Source of the DNA: a virus
Lineage: Duplodnaviria > Heunggongvirae > Uroviricota > Caudoviricetes
Direction: 5' to 3' (one strand)
Virus record (IMG/VR): IMGVR_UViG_2684622669_000021
Coordinates: 1 to 33,583 of that record
DNA: 33,583 bases
This document shows positions 1-32,165 of this stretch, piece after piece. A program made the translations under genes and the position numbers. Numbering within the stretch: the first letter of the stretch is position 1; each line of letters begins with the position of its first letter. The notes under the pieces were generated by a model. The model saw only the letters and a program-made list of their open reading frames with translations. It did no database searches and was not told where the DNA came from.

Positions 1-432
1 CAGTTTTTCTCCGTTATCACAGCGGAACTCGAACCCGTCAGAGCACCATCGCTGATTGCTTTCTTTCACGGCCACTCTGCCTGTATGTGCCCGTTTCGAT
101 GGCGGTACAGCAGGTTTTCGCTCAAGCAACAGCGCATTCTGGCGCATGATCCGGTAAACACGTTTGGCATTGATCGCAGGCATACCATCAAGTTCTGCCT
201 GTCTGCGAAGCAGCGCCCATACCCGACGATAACCATACGTGGGCAGCTCCCCGATAACATGGTGTATACGGAGAAGCACATCCGTATCATCAGTGTGACG
301 ACTGCGGCGGCCATCCATCCAGTCATCGGTTCGTCTGAGAATGACGTGCAACTGCGCACGCGACACCCGGAGACAACGGCTGACTAAGCTTACTCCCCAT
401 CCCCGGGCAATAAGGGCGCGTGCGCTATCCAC
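1..432 (-). CDS. insD: IS2 transposase OrfB (InsD, DDE catalytic subunit), truncated by window edge
   Basis: An open minus-strand frame to position 1 translates ...[99 protein letters not shown]..., matching IS2 InsD. It is absent from the ORF track because it has no in-window stop. Confidence 0.85.
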
Positions 433-755
433 TTTTTTGCCCGTCCATATTCAACGGCTTCTTTGAGGAGTTCATTTTCCATCGTTTTCTTGCCGAGCAG
501 GCGCTGGAGTTCTTTAATCTGCTTCATTGCGGCAGCAAGTTCAGAGGCAGGAACAACCTGTTCTCCGGCGGCCACAGCAGTAAGACTTCCTTCCTGGTAT
601 TGCTTACGCCAGAGAAATAACTGGCTGGCTGCTACACCATGTTGCCGGGCAACGAGGGAGACCGTCATCCCCGGTTCAAAGCTCTGCTGAACAATTGCGA
701 TCTTTTCCTGTGTGGTACGCCGTCTGCGTTTCTCCGGCCCTAAGACATCAATCAT
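390..755 (-). CDS. insC: IS2 transposase OrfA (InsC), HTH DNA-binding subunit
   Basis: Translation [56 protein letters not shown]... recognised as IS2 InsC. The track ORF 390..800 carries a 15-aa extension; the ATG at 753-755 is the likely start. Confidence 0.85.
432..438 (-). other. A6G slippery heptamer, candidate -1 programmed frameshift site joining InsC and InsD
   Basis: Minus-strand AAAAAAG (plus-strand CTTTTTT at 432-438) lies in the orfA/orfB overlap. This is the IS3-family frameshift motif. Confidence 0.6.
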
Positions 756-896
756 CTGTTCTCCAATGACTAGTCTAAAAACTAGTATTAAGACTATCAC
801 TTAAATAAGTGATACTGGTTGTCTGGAGATTCAGGGGGCCAGTCTAAACCCACCAAAAATTATCACACTCAAAATAATTAAAAACACAACACTTCC

Positions 897-14681: not shown

Positions 14682-14978
14682 TCACTCCTGTTCACTGGCC
14701 TCTTTGGCCATCTTCAAATACTGTTCAGGGCAATGCGCCATAACGCGCTGAAACAGTTCCAGCGCCAGATTGCGTTGCCCCTCATTAAATGCCATTGCCA
14801 TAGCGTCCATCGGTGAGATAGCGGAAAACACACGGCCTTTCTCCAGCACCGACCAGACAACGCGACGCCCCTGTTCACTGCTCATGACAAAGCGAATGTC
14901 ATCAATTTCACGCTGTGCCATGTCACGTTGCTTACGGGCGTTTTCTTCTTTCAGTTGATCGTCTTCGTAATCTGTCAT
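14682..14978 (-). CDS. Small head-assembly-associated protein (98 aa), function unknown
   Basis: ATGA overlap with the portal stop. Acidic N-terminus. Confidence 0.5.
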   Translation of the reverse strand: MTDYEDDQLKEENARKQRDMAQREIDDIRFVMSSEQGRRVVWSVLEKGRVFSAISPMDAMAMAFNEGQRNLALELFQRVMAHCPEQYLKMAKEASEQE

Positions 14979-16654
14979 TGTGATTGCCCACCCTGACCAC
15001 TAACTGCATTCACCATAGCTGACAAAACACTCGGATCCGAAGTTTTAGCTTCGCTTAGCGTCTTGGCACCCTGTGCCGCCGCCATCCCCATCGCCATCAT
15101 TTGTTGCTGCTGTTGCTGCTGTGCCCGTTGCTGGCGAGCCTGCTCAACCTGTTCCTGCGGAACAATGACGGTTGGAGACACTCCGGACATATCAGCGAAT
15201 GCATCGATCGCCTGATCAACGTTGAGTTTGTCGAGAGCTTCTGGTTTCGCTTGCGCAAGTTGACCAATGAAGTTAACCGTGGACGCCAGACTGGACAGGC
15301 CGATAGACTTCTGCGCCTGAGCCATGACGGAAATGTATTCGACCTTCAGGGGCATGCCTTCCATCGCGTCAGGCGGTGGCGGAAGCATGTTTTTACGCAC
15401 CATCATCGAGAAAGCGCGGTCAATGAGAGGATTAAGACATTCATCGTTCAGACGCTCCAGAACCGGCCCCAACATCAGAAGTTTTTCTTCTTTCATTTCG
15501 ATCACCGCTTCAACAGGCATCGAGCGGGTATTGATGTTCTGTAACATCATGAACAGATCGACAAAGTAGGCGCTGTTAATGATTTGACGAGTGTCCTGAA
15601 TGTCTGCCACCAAATCTGCTGTACTGGGGTTAACCAGATAAGCAGGCCTGAAACCATCCTGACCAGTAATCTGATCGATATACGTGATGTCGCCAGGAAG
15701 AAGGGAGGCACGCTGATTCTTGAGGGAAGTCGGAGCAACCATCGGCGGATTGGTGGCTTTATCAATCAACTGCGACTTGCGCTTCTGGAGAAGCTGCAAT
15801 GCCTTAACAGGTCCAAGCGCCAGCATGCCCGGGCATGATGATCCATAAACATCTTCGCCGTTAACTTCCCAGCGCGGAGCCATAATTGGAAACTCATCGA
15901 ATCCGGATTCACGTAACAACTTGTCGTTGTCGCCGCCAACCTCGTAATAAACCGATTTGAATGGCTTGTTCTTGCTATCCAGCTTCGATGTATCGCGGTC
16001 AATGTTCGGGTAAACCGAATGCATAACTTCAATCCACTTCTCGTAGGTGCCGCTTTCCCACATGCTTTTTACGGATTCGCTAACGTTATTTAGCCCGAAC
16101 TCCTGAACAAGCTGACGAACAGTCATAGAGAACTTGCGAAAACAGGTGTCCACACTGCCACGAGGTGAGTTAGCCAGGTAGTAACTGCCTATCGGGAATG
16201 GCATTGTGCGAATGATGTCCTCGTCATCCTCCAGCACCGCCATTGCACCAGTGCTGTATGTACCGAGGCTTCCGTATAACTGCGGCAGCGACTGGTAGAG
16301 ATTCGACTTATTGAACATATCGTTCATGCGGTTCTGCACCGCCTCAAGCCACAACTTAACAGGTCCATAATCCATCATTTCAGGATCTGGCGTAGCCAGG
16401 CGAAACCACGGACGCGCGGGGCTTGTGATGCCTGACATCATGCCGCTGGCGAGAGTGCGCGCCGCCATAGTCCCGGTCGAATCAATAATGCGTGTATTGC
16501 GCCGATCGTTACGGTTGACCTCAGAAGTCAGAAAGCGGGAACCACGCGGGTTGATGTAATCACTCAACTCGCGCCAGTGCGGCTCGAACGACTGACGCTC
16601 GCTTTCAAGTTGTGCGAACTGTTTGTTCAATCGCTCTTTAGTTGTTTCCGCCAT
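14975..16654 (-). CDS. Portal (head-to-tail connector) protein, 559 aa
   Basis: First large gene of the head module. C-terminal Gln/Ala/Met-rich tail (...QRAQQQQQQQMMAMGMAAAQGAKTL...) resembles the T7 gp8 connector C-terminus. AGGAGT RBS. Confidence 0.8.
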   Translation of the reverse strand: MAETTKERLNKQFAQLESERQSFEPHWRELSDYINPRGSRFLTSEVNRNDRRNTRIIDSTGTMAARTLASGMMSGITSPARPWFRLATPDPEMMDYGPVKLWLEAVQNRMNDMFNKSNLYQSLPQLYGSLGTYSTGAMAVLEDDEDIIRTMPFPIGSYYLANSPRGSVDTCFRKFSMTVRQLVQEFGLNNVSESVKSMWESGTYEKWIEVMHSVYPNIDRDTSKLDSKNKPFKSVYYEVGGDNDKLLRESGFDEFPIMAPRWEVNGEDVYGSSCPGMLALGPVKALQLLQKRKSQLIDKATNPPMVAPTSLKNQRASLLPGDITYIDQITGQDGFRPAYLVNPSTADLVADIQDTRQIINSAYFVDLFMMLQNINTRSMPVEAVIEMKEEKLLMLGPVLERLNDECLNPLIDRAFSMMVRKNMLPPPPDAMEGMPLKVEYISVMAQAQKSIGLSSLASTVNFIGQLAQAKPEALDKLNVDQAIDAFADMSGVSPTVIVPQEQVEQARQQRAQQQQQQQMMAMGMAAAQGAKTLSEAKTSDPSVLSAMVNAVSGQGGQSQ

Positions 16655-17301: not shown

Positions 17302-17378
17302 GTGGCATTAGCTCAGTTGGACAGAGCAACCGCCTTCTAAGCGGTTGGTCGCAGGTTCGAATCCTGCATGCCGCGCCA
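17302..17378 (+). tRNA. tRNA-Arg, anticodon UCU (reads AGA), with encoded CCA
   Basis: Manual cloverleaf: acceptor GTGGCAT/ATGCCGC (one G-U pair); D-stem GCTC/GAGC; anticodon stem ACCGC/GCGGT with loop CTTCTAA (U33, anticodon TCT, A37); variable loop TGGTC; T-arm GCAGG-TTCGAAT-CCTGC; discriminator G; CCA. Related to but distinct from chromosomal argU. Confidence 0.9.
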
Positions 17379-17464: not shown

Positions 17465-17541
17465 CAGCAGGACGCCATTGCGATGACTTCATGCTGTAAA
17501 CCAGTACAGCCACGGAAGGCATAACTCATAGCTTCCAGTTC

Positions 17542-17635: not shown

Positions 17636-17935
17636 ATGAATGGTTGGAATAGAAAAAAGACTCAATATTTAGCTGAGTGCATCCACGAACACGAAAAAGC
17701 CGACGGAGTAACCTACGATCCTAACGGTATGGTTAGCTACTGGAACACAAAATATAACCTCGTTCCTGCTGAACAGTTGCCAGCATTACAAAATCAGGTA
17801 TCTCTCGAATTAGAAGCTCTACGCGGTGCTGAGACTAACCATGTAACAATTAGCAACATTGGTGCCGCTAAGTTTGGATTCGACTCTGTAATAGGGAATC
17901 ATCTACCTAACTTCGATCCGGAGCCAGTTAAGTAA
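17636..17935 (+). CDS. Orphan moron protein (99 aa), unknown function, opposite strand to the late operon
   Basis: Strong RBS (AAGGAGTCAGCC-ATG). More AT-rich than the flanks. Ends 11 nt from the convergent terL stop. No family recognised from MNGWNRKKTQYLAECIHEHEKADGVTYDPNGMVSYWNTKYN... Confidence 0.6.
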   Translation: MNGWNRKKTQYLAECIHEHEKADGVTYDPNGMVSYWNTKYNLVPAEQLPALQNQVSLELEALRGAETNHVTISNIGAAKFGFDSVIGNHLPNFDPEPVK

Positions 17936-25638: not shown

Positions 25639-26385
25639 TCACTTCGCAATTCCTGGCTGGACGACATTCGGACGCCAGCTCTCCCAGTTAAAATTCACCC
25701 ATCGCCCGCCGTTCATGGTCATGCGATCCATAATCCGCTCGCCGAGCAATGTTTTCATGGCCTCATAGTTCAGGTTTGTCAGCATCCCCACGCTGCGCAT
25801 CGACGCTGTCCGGCGATCAACAATCTGGTGCAGCACCACCTGCTCGTTTTTTGTCTCGCGCTGAATGCCAATTTCATCAAGAACCAGCAGATCCACTTGG
25901 CACAGTTCCCGCAAAAATTTTTCGCCTGATTGCCCGTCGTCATAGCTGGCGTGTAGAGCACTCATGACATCAGCCACGGTAACCACAATCACTGTCTGGC
26001 CATCTTTCAGCAGGCGATTCCCGATAGCCGCCGCCAGATGGTTTTTTCCGGTACCAGGTTTTCCGCTGAACGCAAAATTTGTACACCCGGTCATCAGTTC
26101 ATCAGCGATAGATTTCGCCTGGTTCAACGCGTATCGCTGACCGTCGTTCTGCACCTGGTAATTCGCAAACGAGCATTTGCGGTGCAATGGCTGGATGCCA
26201 GAGCGATTCAGAATTTTTTCCACCCGCAACTGACGATTCTGACGGTTGATCTCCTCACAACGTTTCTGGCCTTCGGAAAGTTGCCACTCGCGCCACTCCG
26301 CTACCGTTTTGAATGGGGCGGTTACATGTGGCGGGGCCAGTCTGCGGATACGTTCAAGAATGCCTCCTGCCGCAATATTTTTCAT
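25639..26385 (-). CDS. DnaC-like replicative helicase loader (AAA+ ATPase), 248 aa
   Basis: Walker [16 protein letters not shown] and Walker [10 protein letters not shown]. Lies right after the replisome-organiser gene. Confidence 0.85.
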
Positions 26386-26391
26386 GGTCAG

Positions 26392-27357
26392 TTACCCCCT
26401 GAAGCCCGGCGGAATTTCGGTATCCGGTTCAGAAATGTGATTCACACAACGCTGTACAGGCGAACGCCCCAGACGAATAACCAGCTCATCCCATTTTTCG
26501 CGAAGCTTTGACGGGCTCATGACGTTTTTTACCCAGAAGGGATCCCGCTGCACCCGACCAAACATTTCGCAAATTTGTCTGTGAGTTCTGCCATCCAGCA
26601 TCCGCATTGTGCGCACATCATTGGCCCATGCAGCCCAGTTGGGTTCTTTCGGTCGCATGATTTCGCCATCATCGCTGGCAGCCTGCTCGTAAAGACTCAC
26701 GATTCGTCCCCAGATCCACTGCGCACACGCTAAATCTTCCTGGCTACCCCACTGGCGTTTTTTCGCACTGAACACAACCGCGTCAGGGTGTCGGGTTAAA
26801 AAATCCTGTTCAGCCGTCTGCATGTCCGGTTGCGAAGCTTCCGGACGAGAAGTGTTTTTATTCTCTGTAGTGATCTCTGTTGTATTCTCTGTAAGATCAT
26901 CAGGCCATTTTGACCCGATGACATTGTGTCGTTTTGAACCAATGGAGCGTGTCATTTTGGCCTCTTCCATCGTGTCATTTTGACCTGATGGAGCGGCGCA
27001 TTTTGACCTGATGGATTCGCTCACTTTGCCACCATCTAAAAGCTCGCTCTCGTAATTAATCGTGTAAAAATTAGTCATGTCACGCTTTGATTTGTTGAGC
27101 TTTTCGCAACGCAAAAGCCCCAGCGCTTTCAGACTTGCAAATGCGCGTTTTAACGTTGACTCTGACCAGAACGGGAACTGTTCCAGCCATTGTTCTGTTG
27201 TGTTATAAATCCAGCGAACACCATCACATTCCATGCCGGAACCGGTATCTCTCAACCAGTAATGCAGCTGCTGTAACACAATGGCTTCGTTCAGACCTAT
27301 TTTCATCGCCAGCTGAGTGTTAATAACCAGTGGGCGTTCAGCAAAAAGAAGACTCAT
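26392..27357 (-). CDS. Replication initiation/replisome organiser protein (O-like), about 321 aa
   Basis: Position upstream of the DnaC-like gene. N-terminal HTH-like region. Start uncertain: ATG at 27355-27357 or TTG at 27411. Confidence 0.6.
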   Translation of the reverse strand: MSLLFAERPLVINTQLAMKIGLNEAIVLQQLHYWLRDTGSGMECDGVRWIYNTTEQWLEQFPFWSESTLKRAFASLKALGLLRCEKLNKSKRDMTNFYTINYESELLDGGKVSESIRSKCAAPSGQNDTMEEAKMTRSIGSKRHNVIGSKWPDDLTENTTEITTENKNTSRPEASQPDMQTAEQDFLTRHPDAVVFSAKKRQWGSQEDLACAQWIWGRIVSLYEQAASDDGEIMRPKEPNWAAWANDVRTMRMLDGRTHRQICEMFGRVQRDPFWVKNVMSPSKLREKWDELVIRLGRSPVQRCVNHISEPDTEIPPGFRG

Positions 27358-27859
27358 AATTCCATCCGGCTTTTTGTTGATATTGCTGACGATACGCACG
27401 CTTGAAAGCAATGGCTTTTTCTATAAGCTCGTCAGTCTCACGTTCCACAACAGCTGGATCCGCAAAAAGCAGCCCGGACTCCACCACATCGCCATATTCT
27501 TTGTTTAACCCGGCGATCATGTACGTAATGCTTTTTCCGTCAGTAATTTCACAATACAACCTGAAATCGCTGATCCGGATAGCCTCCATAATTGCCGGAA
27601 TCAGCGCCGTGAATTTTTCACGCTTATCCCTGGTGTCGATAGCTTTCCAGCGTTCGAATATCTTCACCCTGTTAACGCCCAGCGCCCGTTGATCAACCGC
27701 GCCATCATCAAACGTGACGCGATGAACATCGATGTTCGGGCGTTCTTTCAGAGCCCAGAATGCTTCCGTGATTAATATCGTCGCCTGCTCCTGCGTCATT
27801 CCTGGTCGGCATACCCAGGCATCCAGAGCCTCGCGAGCCTGCTCAGGAGTGAATATCAT
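27338..27859 (-). CDS. Hypothetical early protein at the cII/YdaT position (173 aa)
   Basis: Lies between the Cro-like gene and the replication genes. Assignment is by position only. Confidence 0.45.
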   Translation of the reverse strand: MIFTPEQAREALDAWVCRPGMTQEQATILITEAFWALKERPNIDVHRVTFDDGAVDQRALGVNRVKIFERWKAIDTRDKREKFTALIPAIMEAIRISDFRLYCEITDGKSITYMIAGLNKEYGDVVESGLLFADPAVVERETDELIEKAIAFKRAYRQQYQQKAGWNYESSFC

Positions 27860-28118
27860 TGTTCACCGCCAGTGATTCATTCGACATACACTTATTTTCA
27901 CAAGGTAGTCCATCTGTTGGGTTGGGATAAATGTCAGGGCGAAGTTCGTGGGGAGTAATTTCCCAATTCAGTAATGCACAGAGTGACGACACGCGTTCAG
28001 CAGGAACCTTGCCTTTAATGAACCACTTGCCTACGGCCTGGGAGCTAATGCCAAAGTGTTTGCCAATGTCAGTTTTCGACATTTTTTTAGAGATCTTATC
28101 GTGAATTTGATTACTCAT
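27843..28118 (-). CDS. Cro/YdaS-like HTH transcriptional regulator (91 aa)
   Basis: HTH segment SKTDIGKHFGISSQAVGKWFIKGKVPAERV. Divergent from the repressor gene. Start at the ATG at 28116-28118 after GGTGGAAAG; the track ORF extends to a GTG at 28145. Confidence 0.6.
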   Translation of the reverse strand: MSNQIHDKISKKMSKTDIGKHFGISSQAVGKWFIKGKVPAERVSSLCALLNWEITPHELRPDIYPNPTDGLPCENKCMSNESLAVNNDIHS

Positions 28119-28157
28119 ACTTTCCACCAGTACTATTAATTTCACCTACGCTACCAT

Positions 28158-28195
28158 CAAAAACTATAAGTTTCAACACAAAACCTATAGTTTTG
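28158..28195. promoter_or_regulatory. Operator-like pair of near-palindromic 14-15-bp sites between the divergent repressor and Cro-like genes
   Basis: AAAACTATAAGTTT (28160-28173) and AAACCTATAGTTTT (28181-28194) are inverted copies of one motif with a CTATAG centre. Confidence 0.55.
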
Positions 28196-28224
28196 CTGAT
28201 TGGTGAAACCTTTGGTTGTATACT
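28194..28224 (+). promoter_or_regulatory. Candidate maintenance promoter for the repressor, likely giving a leaderless mRNA
   Basis: TATACT (28219-28224) lies 6 nt upstream of the repressor ATG at 28231 with no SD. Possible -35 TTGCTG at 28194-28199. Confidence 0.35.
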
Positions 28225-28230
28225 TAAAAA

Positions 28231-28641
28231 ATGAGTAAAATAAACCATCCAATATTTGCTGAGAGAGTTCGGCAAGCAATGAGCGAACATGGCTGGTCGT
28301 TAGCCGGTCTGGCTAAAAAGGTTATGCTGTCCCATACCGCTGTGCGTAAGTGGGCAACAGGAGAAACCATTGCCAGCGGAGAAAGATTAAAAAGACTTGC
28401 CGCGGTAACAGGAAAACCAGAACATTGGTTTTTTATGCCGCTAAATGAACATTCAAAGGAAGAAGATGCACCACCACTAATCCAGCTTGACGACAAAGAA
28501 AAGGCGCTATTGTCCCTTTTTAATCAGTTGCCAGAAACGGAAAAGCTGAGACTAATCATGCACACAAAAAGCATTCTTCATGAAATGGATCTTCTAAAAA
28601 ACGATGTATACGACATAATCAATGATATTCAAAAACAATAA
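28231..28641 (+). CDS. Prophage repressor, XRE-family HTH, RacR/CI-like (136 aa)
   Basis: N-terminal HTH FAERVRQAMSEHGWSLAGLAKKVMLSHTAVRKWATGETIASGERLKRLAAVTG. Divergent from the Cro-like gene and followed by its own terminator. Confidence 0.7.
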   Translation: MSKINHPIFAERVRQAMSEHGWSLAGLAKKVMLSHTAVRKWATGETIASGERLKRLAAVTGKPEHWFFMPLNEHSKEEDAPPLIQLDDKEKALLSLFNQLPETEKLRLIMHTKSILHEMDLLKNDVYDIINDIQKQ

Positions 28642-28653
28642 GTTACATGAAAA

Positions 28654-28678
28654 AAGCGCCTCCCTGGCGCTTTTTTTA
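28654..28678. terminator. Intrinsic terminator after the repressor gene, possibly bidirectional
   Basis: AAAAAAGCGCC-TCCCT-GGCGCTTTTTTT: 6-bp GC stem flanked by an A-run and a T-run. Confidence 0.7.
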
Positions 28679-28712
28679 TCCTCACAAATAAAACTTTATG
28701 TTCCATTGCCTA

Positions 28713-28741
28713 TTGACCAATAAAACCAATAGTTTTACCAT
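28713..28741 (+). promoter_or_regulatory. Candidate early-left promoter with an embedded operator copy
   Basis: TTGACC (28713-28718), a 17-nt spacer containing AAAACCAATAGTTTT (28722-28736), then TACCAT. The operator copy is one mismatch from the 28181-28194 site. Confidence 0.4.
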
Positions 28742-30062: not shown

Positions 30063-32165
30063 ATGACTGAGATTGAGGAGAATATGCTCCTGCCGGTTTC
30101 AGGTCAGATTCTGCCTGTTCGATGGCTGGCACAGCACGGCAGCGAAAAACCGATCACACACGTTTCGCGGGGCGAACTACGCGCATTACATAACGCACAG
30201 GATGAAAAACTTCCCGCCGTTACCGCGCTGGCCATCTCAAATAAAGCAGCGCAACTCGAACCGCTGGAAATTCGCGATCTCCACAAACTGGTTCGTGACA
30301 CTGACAAAGTTTTCCCTAATCCTGGTAATTCAGACCTGGGACTGATGACTGCTTTTTTCGAAGCCTACCTGGGCGCTGACTACACCGATCGCGGTCTGCT
30401 GACAAAAGAGTGGATGAAAGGAAATCGTGTTTCACGCATCACCCGCACGGCTTCCGGTGCTAATGCCGGTGGAGGGAACAAAACCGATCGCAATCCGAAT
30501 TTAGTACACACCTTCGATACGCTGGATGTGGAGATTGCAGCGGCCACACTTCCGATGGATTTTAATATTTATGAAATTCCGGGCAGCGTTTATCGTCGCG
30601 CAAAAGAAGTCGTCCGGAAGAAAGAAAGTCCGTTCAAAGAATGGTCCGCGGCACTTCGCGCAATCCCGGGTATCCTGGATTATTCCCGCGCCGCTATTTT
30701 TGCACTTATCCGGAGCGCACACCCTGAGTTTTATCATTACCCGGGACGTCTTCAGGGGTATATCAACGCCTATTTAACAGAGACTGATCACGAGAACCCT
30801 TCCGAGGAAACTCTCGCTGCTGCACGACATACACCGGAAAAAGATATCCTGGAAGAAGTTAACCGCGAACTGGCTGCTGAACGCGAAACAGAAGAAGAAA
30901 AAAATAATGAGGAAAAATCACAACCGTCTGACGCAATGGCAGATGAACAGGCAACGGCTGAAACAATGGAACCGGATACAACTGAACATCGCCAGGACAC
31001 GCAATCGCTGGATGCTCAGGCACAGATAGATCCAGTTAATCAGGTAAAAGTTACCGCTGACGAAGTAAACAAAATTATGCAAGCAGCCAATATCAGCCAG
31101 CCTGACGCCGATAAGTTGCTTGCGGCCTCTCGCGGTGAATTTGTTGCAGGGATTAGCGACCCGAATGATCCGAAATGGGTGAAGGGGATTGAAACCCGCG
31201 ATTCTGTGAACCAGAACCAACAAGAATCGGAACAGAACGACCAGAAAGCGGAACAAAACAGCCCAAATGCGTTACAAAACGAGCCAGAAACGAAACAGCC
31301 TGAACCAGTGGCGCAACAGGAAGTGGAAAAAGTTTGCAATGCCTGCGGTCAGTCTGGCGGGGATAACTGCCCTGACTGTGGTGCGGTGATGGGCAACGCA
31401 ACATACCAGGAAACATTCGATGACGAGAATCAGGTTGAAGTTCAGGAAAATGATCCGGAGGAAATGGAAGGCGCTGAACATCCACAAAAGGAGAATGCTG
31501 GCAGCGCTCAGGACCACGCCAGCGATAATGAAACTGGCGAGACGGCAGATCCCTTAATTGCAGTGAACGGTCATCACATTATCACATCCACCAGCAGAGT
31601 GTGGTACCACCTGATGATCGACCTTGAAACAATGGGAACCAACACCAATGCGCCCATCGTGGTTATTGGTGCGGTTTTCTTCGACCCACAAACAGGGGAA
31701 ATCGGGCCAGTATTTTATATCGTTATCAGTCTGACTGACGCAATGAATACAGGGGCTGTTCCTGACGGTGGAACCATCGAATGGTGGCTGAAGCAGTCCA
31801 GTGAAGCCAGAGCTGCCATTTTAACAGACCAGGTAAAACTGAAGGATGCCCTTTCGCGGTTTCGGGAGTTCATCAACGAATACTCAGATGAAAAATTAGT
31901 TCAGGTATGGGGTAATGGTGCAACTTTCGATAACGCAATTTTGCGCACCTCATACGAACACCTGGACATCCCCTGCCCGTGGCGCTACTACAACGATCGC
32001 GATGTACGCACAATCGTTGAGCTGGGGAAAGCCATAGACTTCGATGCCAGAACGGCTATTCCATTCGAAGGTGAGCGCCATAATGCACTTGATGACGCCC
32101 GTTACCAGGCAAAATACGTTTCAGCTATCTGGCAAAAACTGATCCCGAGTCAGGCTGATTCTTAA
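30063..32165 (+). CDS. RecE-like protein: RecE N-terminal/linker region fused to a C-terminal DEDDh 3'-5' exonuclease domain (700 aa)
   Basis: N-terminus [36 protein letters not shown]..., the acidic Gln/Glu-rich linker and the Zn-ribbon [20 protein letters not shown] are recognised from RecE (exodeoxyribonuclease VIII). The C-terminal 200 aa carry DnaQ-like motifs: Exo I MIDLET, Exo [14 protein letters not shown], Exo [16 protein letters not shown]. Confidence 0.7.

Follow-up and report, generated by a model that had tools for sequence, protein, structure and literature searches.

A probable immunity switch with a DicA-like repressor, a YdaS-family Cro and a YdaT-family regulator in a phiV10/epsilon15-like prophage of Escherichia coli

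We describe here the early control region of a Caudoviricetes prophage of Escherichia coli, contained in a stretch of DNA of 33,583 nucleotides (IMG/VR virus record IMGVR_UViG_2684622669_000021, positions 1 to 33,583), the whole of which is referred to as the window. At this locus a repressor gene is transcribed rightwards, and a Cro-like regulator gene, a gene encoding a 173-residue protein and two replication genes are transcribed leftwards from the opposite side of a short spacer. These genes are as follows.

28231-28641, plus strand: putative immunity repressor, the CI equivalent, 136 amino acids (aa), with an N-terminal XRE helix-turn-helix, a DicA-type C-terminal region and the motif LLSLFNQLPETE.
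27843-28118, minus strand: Cro-like regulator of the YdaS family, 91 aa (Pfam YdaS_toxin; PHROG 35).
27338-27859, minus strand: YdaT-family protein, 173 aa, a putative functional analogue of CII, with an N-terminal helix-turn-helix, an R70-W71 pair and C-terminal helices.
26392-27357, minus strand: O-like replication initiator (PHROG 391, E = 4.2e-96), with the same start as that used by RefSeq in a near-identical record.
25639-26385, minus strand: DnaC-like helicase loader, an orthologue of YdaV (97% identity to Rac YdaV; NCBIfam PRK12377, 506 bits).

The original prediction had placed an XRE repressor divergent from a Cro-like helix-turn-helix gene that overlaps the start of a 173-aa gene, and a check of the open reading frames (ORFs) of the window bears this out. 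The spacer between the divergent starts is 112 bp, counting the Cro-like gene from the ATG at 28118 (the start chosen by RefSeq for this gene in a record that is 99.9% identical), and the Cro-like gene runs 17 nt into the 173-aa gene before reaching its stop codon (27845-27843), such that the overlap is a genuine one. The same operon extends beyond the interval originally described, first into the gene for the O-like initiator, the start of which overlaps the end of the 173-aa gene by 20 nt, and then into that for the DnaC-like loader. The O-like initiator carries at its C-terminus an IPPGFRG tail that is common to Rac YdaU.

The repressor scores 39.3 bits against Pfam HTH_3 (cut-off 23) and is 30% identical to K-12 DicA (E = 2e-11), with a C-terminal LLxLFNxLPExE motif present in both proteins; against the NCBIfam DicA model (PRK09706) it scores 47.6 bits, under the curated cut-off of 101. 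From these matches the repressor is a DicA-like relative rather than a DicA orthologue, and its predicted operator sequence differs too. No S24 self-cleavage domain was detected in it. The C-terminal motif is common to eight DicA-like repressor types that adjoin genes of this YdaT subfamily. These eight repressors (at loci L007, L012, L013, L020, L022, L031 and L084, and in the window) are otherwise divergent and range from 130 to 162 aa, and in each of them the LLxLFxxLPExE-like motif is followed by a charged helix. A relationship between the repressor and RacR was also considered and was rejected, as BLASTP returned E = 9.5 and no meaningful alignment.

The Cro-like protein scores 39.3 bits against Pfam YdaS_toxin (PF15943; cut-off 30) and is 35% identical to Rac YdaS across 51 aa. 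Its best PDB match by sequence is 3bd1, deposited as 'Cro protein' (E = 4.9e-6), and its gene is the first one divergent from the repressor, so that both score and position place it in the YdaS family. A relationship to DicC was rejected (E = 0.077).

For the 173-aa protein the pairwise link to Rac YdaT is thin, with similarity limited to a single 29-residue block, and for this reason its family membership was examined with profiles and a structural model. It scores 26.5 bits against Pfam YdaT_toxin (PF06254; cut-off 21) and matches PHROG 163, 'CII-like transcriptional activator' (E = 4.6e-40). Comparison by hhalign of a subfamily profile (26 sequences) with a profile of Rac-type YdaT proteins (18 sequences) gave a probability of 98.7% (E = 3.9e-16) over residues 1-113 of the 173-aa protein and 1-97 of Rac YdaT, with about 24% identity to Rac YdaT across the DNA-binding domain. 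Residues N63, I67, R70, W71, L86 and P88 are invariant in both YdaT subfamilies. The R70-W71 pair, invariant in 43 sequences, aligns with R57-W58 of Rac YdaT, and a Rac YdaT H56A R57A double mutant has lost DNA binding (PMC11879457).

An AlphaFold2 model of the 173-aa protein made with a merged alignment of 43 sequences (mean predicted local distance difference test score, pLDDT, of 87.3) has helices at residues 5-16 and 23-36, then a 20-residue loop and a helix at 57-73; C-terminal helices are predicted at 99-107, 111-130 and 135-164. A long loop between helices 2 and 3 is regarded as a hallmark of the YdaT family in the paper describing structure 8bt1 (PMC9986795), and the model contains it. 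The only significant PDB matches found by Foldseek with the model are the YdaT structures 8bt1 and 3c4r, each with a probability of 1.00, and 8bt1 is the best of them (template modelling score of 0.66 on the target); in a PDB search by sequence only, the YdaT matches are marginal (E about 0.04; 8bt1 E = 0.046). The position of the gene, between cro-type and replication genes and with an inverted-repeat box at its start, is that of a YdaT-family gene. On sequence profile and modelled fold, the 173-aa protein is a member of the YdaT family, within a subfamily separate from that of Rac YdaT. Membership of the lambda CII family was rejected, as the Pfam scan of the protein gave YdaT_toxin alone; the relation to CII is a functional and positional one (PMC9986795). 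The same gene is annotated as cII or 'CII-like transcriptional activator' in phage records, and the RefSeq label that it carries ("toxin YdaT family protein") is better read as "CII-like establishment regulator".

Two segments of DNA in the region are related to sites that are bound by YdaT proteins.

27849-27866, unstranded: candidate YdaT box, GTGAAC-AATGAT-ATTCAC (coding strand), whose 6-nt spacer contains the ATG of the 173-aa gene.
28615-28632, unstranded: partial second copy of the box core, with one half-site; it is an exact, inverted 12-mer (CAATGATATTCA) located in the final codons of the repressor gene.

The candidate box is an 18 bp inverted repeat extending from -7 to +11 of the 173-aa gene. 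The footprint of Rac YdaT, ATGATTCATGAAAATCAA, is at the same position and also has the ATG in its spacer (PMC11879457), and that of CP-933P YdaT is TTGATT-N6-AATCAA (PMC9986795); the box in the window matches both of these in register and in a TGA-N10-TCA core. We extracted the 18-mer from 344 loci encoding YdaT-family proteins of six sequence types (a scan with a Rac-type alignment gave just loci at least 94% identical to Rac YdaT, and three single-protein scans added diversity), and the core is present in all 344, among 27 distinct 18-mers, with the DNA 5' of the box being unrelated among locus groups. In two of the box variants (63 loci), on our reading of the output, the second codon has been lost and the ATG has moved by 3 nt with the spacing of the half-sites kept, which suggests that it is the DNA site, and not the N-terminal peptide, that is under selection. 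These features support the assignment of 27849-27866 as the predicted binding site of the 173-aa protein itself, and the family-wide presence of the box at the start codon provides a simple binding-site prediction for any YdaT-family gene.

The 12-mer of the box core has two matches in the window versus 0.19 expected. The partial copy within the repressor gene was considered as a looping site, but it has one half-site only, and the secondary near-copies at other loci are at inconsistent positions. At loci L084 and L086 a direct near-copy of the start-codon box (CAATGATATTTAC) is located about 324 nt upstream of the ydaT-like start, at the beginning of a third Cro-type ORF that also begins MIFT; it looks like either a duplicated junction or a second binding site.

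The spacer and the flanks of the repressor gene contain the following predicted regulatory features.

28160-28173 and 28181-28194, unstranded: two predicted operators for the repressor and Cro, both within the divergent spacer and both near-palindromes of AAAACTATAGTTTT; their centres are separated by 21 bp.
28723-28736, unstranded: third predicted operator copy, in the spacer of the P_L-type promoter.
28148-28176, minus strand: predicted P_R-type promoter for the Cro-like operon (TTGAAA, 17 nt, TAGCGT).
28196-28224, plus strand: predicted P_RM-type promoter for the repressor, with a -10 of TATACT (28219-28224) and a weak -35 abutted by operator 28181-28194.
28713-28741, plus strand: predicted P_L-type promoter (TTGACC, 17 nt, TACCAT), from a consensus promoter scan.
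28647-28679, unstranded: GC-rich hairpin flanked by A and T runs, directly past the repressor stop (inverted repeat I4, 14-nt arms, 93% complementary).

With up to two mismatches allowed, the AAAACTATAGTTTT pattern has only three matches in the 33.6-kb window versus 0.07 expected, and we infer that these three sites act as operators in an O_R/O_L layout of the kind found in lambdoid phages. Operator 28160-28173 sits in the spacer and -35 region of the predicted P_R-type promoter. The P_L-type site was the only one in the region picked up by the strict consensus promoter scan, and the P_R- and P_RM-type promoters were read by eye from the sequence. As TATACT lies 6 nt before the repressor ATG and there is no Shine-Dalgarno sequence, the repressor mRNA is predicted to be leaderless, for which lambda cI and CP-933P paaR2 are precedents (PMC8630535). 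The hairpin at 28647-28679 is probably a bidirectional terminator.

We consider it probable that this region is the immunity switch of a temperate phage and that it is built like the switches of Qin, Rac and CP-933P. In a lysogen the DicA-like repressor, probably made from a leaderless transcript, would bind the AAAACTATAGTTTT-type operators and shut two promoters. Of these, the leftward P_R-type promoter would drive the Cro-like, YdaT-like, O-like and DnaC-like genes as one translationally coupled operon, and the rightward P_L-type promoter would drive ydfA-, ydfB- and ydfC-like genes, an exonuclease gene, xis and int. After infection or derepression, the YdaS-family protein would act as Cro and the 173-aa YdaT-family protein as the CII analogue; the latter, probably an oligomer, would bind the inverted repeat that covers its start codon and, through a P_RE-like promoter, activate transcription in the direction of the repressor gene, such that establishment of lysogeny is favoured. 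In CP-933P, YdaS is the analogue of Cro and YdaT that of CII, with a P_RE-like promoter being stimulated by YdaT (PMC8630535, PMC9986795), Rac YdaT binds its own box and activates a reverse promoter for racR (PMC11879457), and YdaS and YdaT have also been argued from genetic context to be Cro and CII analogues (PMC5917428). Among the first 92 related loci the ydaT-like gene is joined to three Cro types and to at least eight types of DicA-like repressor, as expected for exchangeable lambdoid modules.

Several points weigh against this interpretation. The promoter scan did not find a consensus-like reverse (P_RE-type) promoter between the box and the repressor gene, and the half-sites of the box in the window (GTGAAC/GTGAAT) are unlike the footprinted TTGATT. 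R70 is preceded by E and not by H, and the binding specificity of the protein is therefore a guess. The alignment used for AlphaFold2 held classical YdaT sequences, so that the fold match and the sequence relationship are not entirely separate lines of evidence, and a first model made from a shallow alignment of 11 close homologues had a mean pLDDT of 52 and was discarded. Finally, residues 114-173, with three predicted helices, do not align with the single tetramerisation helix (helix 6) of classical YdaT.

There is a version of events in which the 173-aa protein has a second role, as follows. It would be growth-inhibitory when derepressed, so that the repressor could not be deleted even when the lytic genes are absent; the pair would guard the immunity region against partial deletion, and bridging between the start-codon box and its partial copy would loop out the switch. 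We regard this combination as unlikely. RacR is essential in K-12, and silencing of racR derepresses toxic ydaS/ydaT (PMC5700377, PMC5700373); when Rac YdaT is expressed, viable counts fall by about four orders of magnitude, an effect that does not depend on other Rac genes (PMC11879457). With about 24% identity to Rac YdaT across the DNA-binding domain, rcsA-linked effects cannot be assumed for the 173-aa protein, and if its forced expression were to inhibit growth, this would be secondary to its activity as a transcription factor and not a dedicated toxin function, as with Rac YdaT and with lambda CII, which is toxic when over-produced (cited in PMC5917428). We looked in the window for dicB, kil and DicF, which would be an alternative source of repressor essentiality, and found none of them.

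The same toxicity data can be cited for a further proposal of the original prediction, that the locus, if the 173-aa protein is toxic, is an addiction module. In that reading this protein, alone or together with the Cro-like one, would be a growth-arresting toxin silenced by the repressor, and loss of the repressor or of the prophage would kill the cell, with the element stabilised as a result. Pfam does name the two families YdaS_toxin and YdaT_toxin, but these names come from a computational prediction of toxin-antitoxin systems that was later found to be without experimental support (PMC5917428). An earlier test of the YdaS/YdaT pair gave no indication of a toxin-antitoxin system (cited in PMC5917428). 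In CP-933P, no toxicity of YdaT was observed, and the two proteins were judged not to form a toxin-antitoxin pair (PMC8630535). Both candidates at this locus are helix-turn-helix transcription factors; Pfam, NCBIfam and PADLOC scans of the locus proteins returned no toxin-fold or antitoxin family match, and the PADLOC similarity was to a generic helix-turn-helix alone. Moreover, we reason that a repressed lysogen holds no 'toxin' and that loss of the whole prophage removes both genes, which leaves no mechanism for post-segregational killing. Derepression of Rac leads to excision, after which the cured cells recover (PMC11879457), the opposite of stabilisation, and the gene is often truncated in cryptic prophages, including ydfX of K-12 Qin. 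We therefore set the addiction proposal aside as very improbable, given the recovery of Rac cells after excision and given that the homologous pair corresponds to Cro and CII instead of to a toxin and its antitoxin (PMC5917428, PMC8630535, PMC9986795). By analogy with these homologues, toxicity of YdaT is member-specific, is a by-product of a transcription factor and does not stabilise the prophage.

We rate lower still the view that the YdaT-like protein mainly controls chromosomal genes, as a domesticated prophage transcription factor outside of the phage decision circuit. Qin DicC has been reported to bind many host loci (PMC11430063), but the gene considered here lies within a phage early operon and is coupled in translation to the Cro-like gene and to the replication genes; it moves as a module between phages and prophages of the lambdoid and phiV10-like kinds, and the best conserved of its cis features is the one at its start codon. 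The least probable reading is that of a decaying remnant, in which the switch genes are present but no longer work together. In its favour are a transposase fragment at the left end of the window, the lack of any Q-type antiterminator or lysis cassette seen in it, and the fact that the 173-aa gene has many truncated relatives. Against it, none of the five early genes is shortened and their overlaps are coupled, the operator sites and the box are undamaged, integrase and excisionase are both intact, and five complete E. coli genomes carry this immunity region at 98.2-99.9% identity.

An immunity switch thus remains our preferred reading, and we are confident that it is an ordinary lysis/lysogeny control region of an E. 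coli prophage, of the Qin/Rac type and of a known and annotated kind. What is new is the immunity type within this kind, and the only additions are the predicted operators and the family-wide start-codon box; the locus matters little beyond annotation. The combination of repressor and Cro found in the window is present in 5 of 5,426 complete E. coli genomes, compared to 2,684 of 5,426 for the ydaT-like gene. The immunity type is thus rare, and it has a predicted operator sequence of its own. Genes 92-93% identical to the ydaT-like gene also occur in metagenome-assembled genomes labelled as Collinsella, Bacillota and Veillonella (L007, L008 and L009), and a protein labelled as Rhodococcus (P0061) is 92% identical to the 173-aa protein; these labels probably reflect binning errors or contamination.

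The window as a whole corresponds to a phiV10/epsilon15-like podovirus prophage, with 97.7% identity to the O157 typing phages 9 and 10 across 82% of its first 25 kb (1-25000), and it is on this background that the lambdoid-type early region is found. The integrase and excisionase genes are at the right end of the window. At the left end, a 136-aa ORF (390-800, minus strand) has transposase-family matches and similarity to phiV10-like phages stops at about position 894, and the prophage may be interrupted or truncated near this ORF. Between the replication genes and the small terminase gene, neither a Q-type antiterminator nor a lysis cassette was seen. A tRNA-Arg gene (anticodon TCT; 17302-17378) is encoded on the opposite strand from the structural genes, between the head-tail adaptor/connector gene (14975-16654) and that for the large terminase. 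A 700-aa protein (30063-32165) combines an N-terminal ExoVIII-like piece with a C-terminal Rv2179c-like 3'-5' exoribonuclease domain and is unlike Rac RecE.

We also searched the window for LexA boxes, with possible antirepressor control in mind, and found two matches to CTGT-N8-ACAG, neither of them near the switch. One of these (17494-17509) is about 130 nt upstream of an orphan 99-aa ORF (17636-17935) that has a strong AAGGAG ribosome-binding site and no Pfam or PHROG match. This ORF could be under SOS control, which would be relevant to the induction of a repressor lacking a self-cleavage domain, or the LexA-like site could be there by chance.

Judged by sequence comparison, the closest K-12 counterpart of the region is dicA-dicC-ydfX of Qin and not the Rac locus. 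The two share a DicA-type repressor (30% identity, with the C-terminal LLxLFNxLPExE motif), and the dicC/ydfX overlap is 17 nt, as is that between the Cro-like and 173-aa genes. Both also have ydfA (DUF1391), ydfB and ydfC-like genes past the repressor and behind an operator-bearing promoter. K-12 YdfX, which has already been named as the Qin homologue of YdaT (PMC11879457), is 90% identical to residues 1-93 of the 173-aa protein. In contrast, the Cro protein of the window is of the YdaS type rather than the DicC type, and the operators are AAAACTATAGTTTT rather than the TGTTAG...CTAACA-type repeats seen in the Qin spacer, although the layout of the sites is alike. The 173-aa gene is full length here, whereas ydfX of K-12, a truncated representative of this YdaT subfamily, encodes 96 aa. 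YdfX (L004, 4347-4637) corresponds to the N-terminal DNA-binding part and is cut before the C-terminal helices, and many similarly truncated clusters are present in the protein database, including 96-aa clusters with 132-199 members.

The original prediction had taken the locus to mirror racR/ydaS/ydaT, and this holds in part: the layout, the YdaS-family protein (35% identity) and membership of the YdaT family (by Pfam, by hhalign at 98.7% and by fold) are all in agreement, whereas the repressor is not a RacR (E = 9.5). The gene order of Rac (racR-ydaS-ydaT-ydaU-ydaV) is shared, as are a YdaS-family Cro (over 51 aa), a YdaT-family CII analogue with a conserved R-W pair in its recognition helix, an inverted repeat across the ydaT start codon (PMC11879457) and a 97% identical YdaV. 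Besides the unrelated repressor, the differences are that in the YdaT-like protein of the window the loop between helices 2 and 3 is longer and the C-terminal region is both longer and of another kind, and that the O-like protein of the window is unlike YdaU save for the C-terminal tail. The paaR2/ydaS/ydaT region of CP-933P (E. coli O157:H7) provides the best structural match to the model (8bt1) and a box of the same geometry (TTGATT-N6-AATCAA; PMC9986795). A leaderless repressor has been demonstrated in CP-933P (PMC8630535) and is predicted here, and there is a toxin-antitoxin pair past the repressor in CP-933P but not in the window.

The comparison with lambda (cI-cro-cII-O-P) is one of logic and order rather than of protein families. 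The Pfam scan of these proteins gave no lambda-type CI, Cro or CII family, the repressor is without a self-cleavage domain, the overlap between the cro-like and cII-like genes leaves no room for a tR1-type terminator, and the half-sites of the box are inverted, whereas the repeat recognised by CII is a direct one. The order is nonetheless the same, with a repressor gene between P_L and P_R followed by Cro, an establishment activator and the replication genes (PMC9986795, PMC5917428), and in lambda the binding site of the establishment activator is at the start of its own gene (PMC9986795, PMC5917428), as is predicted for the 173-aa protein.

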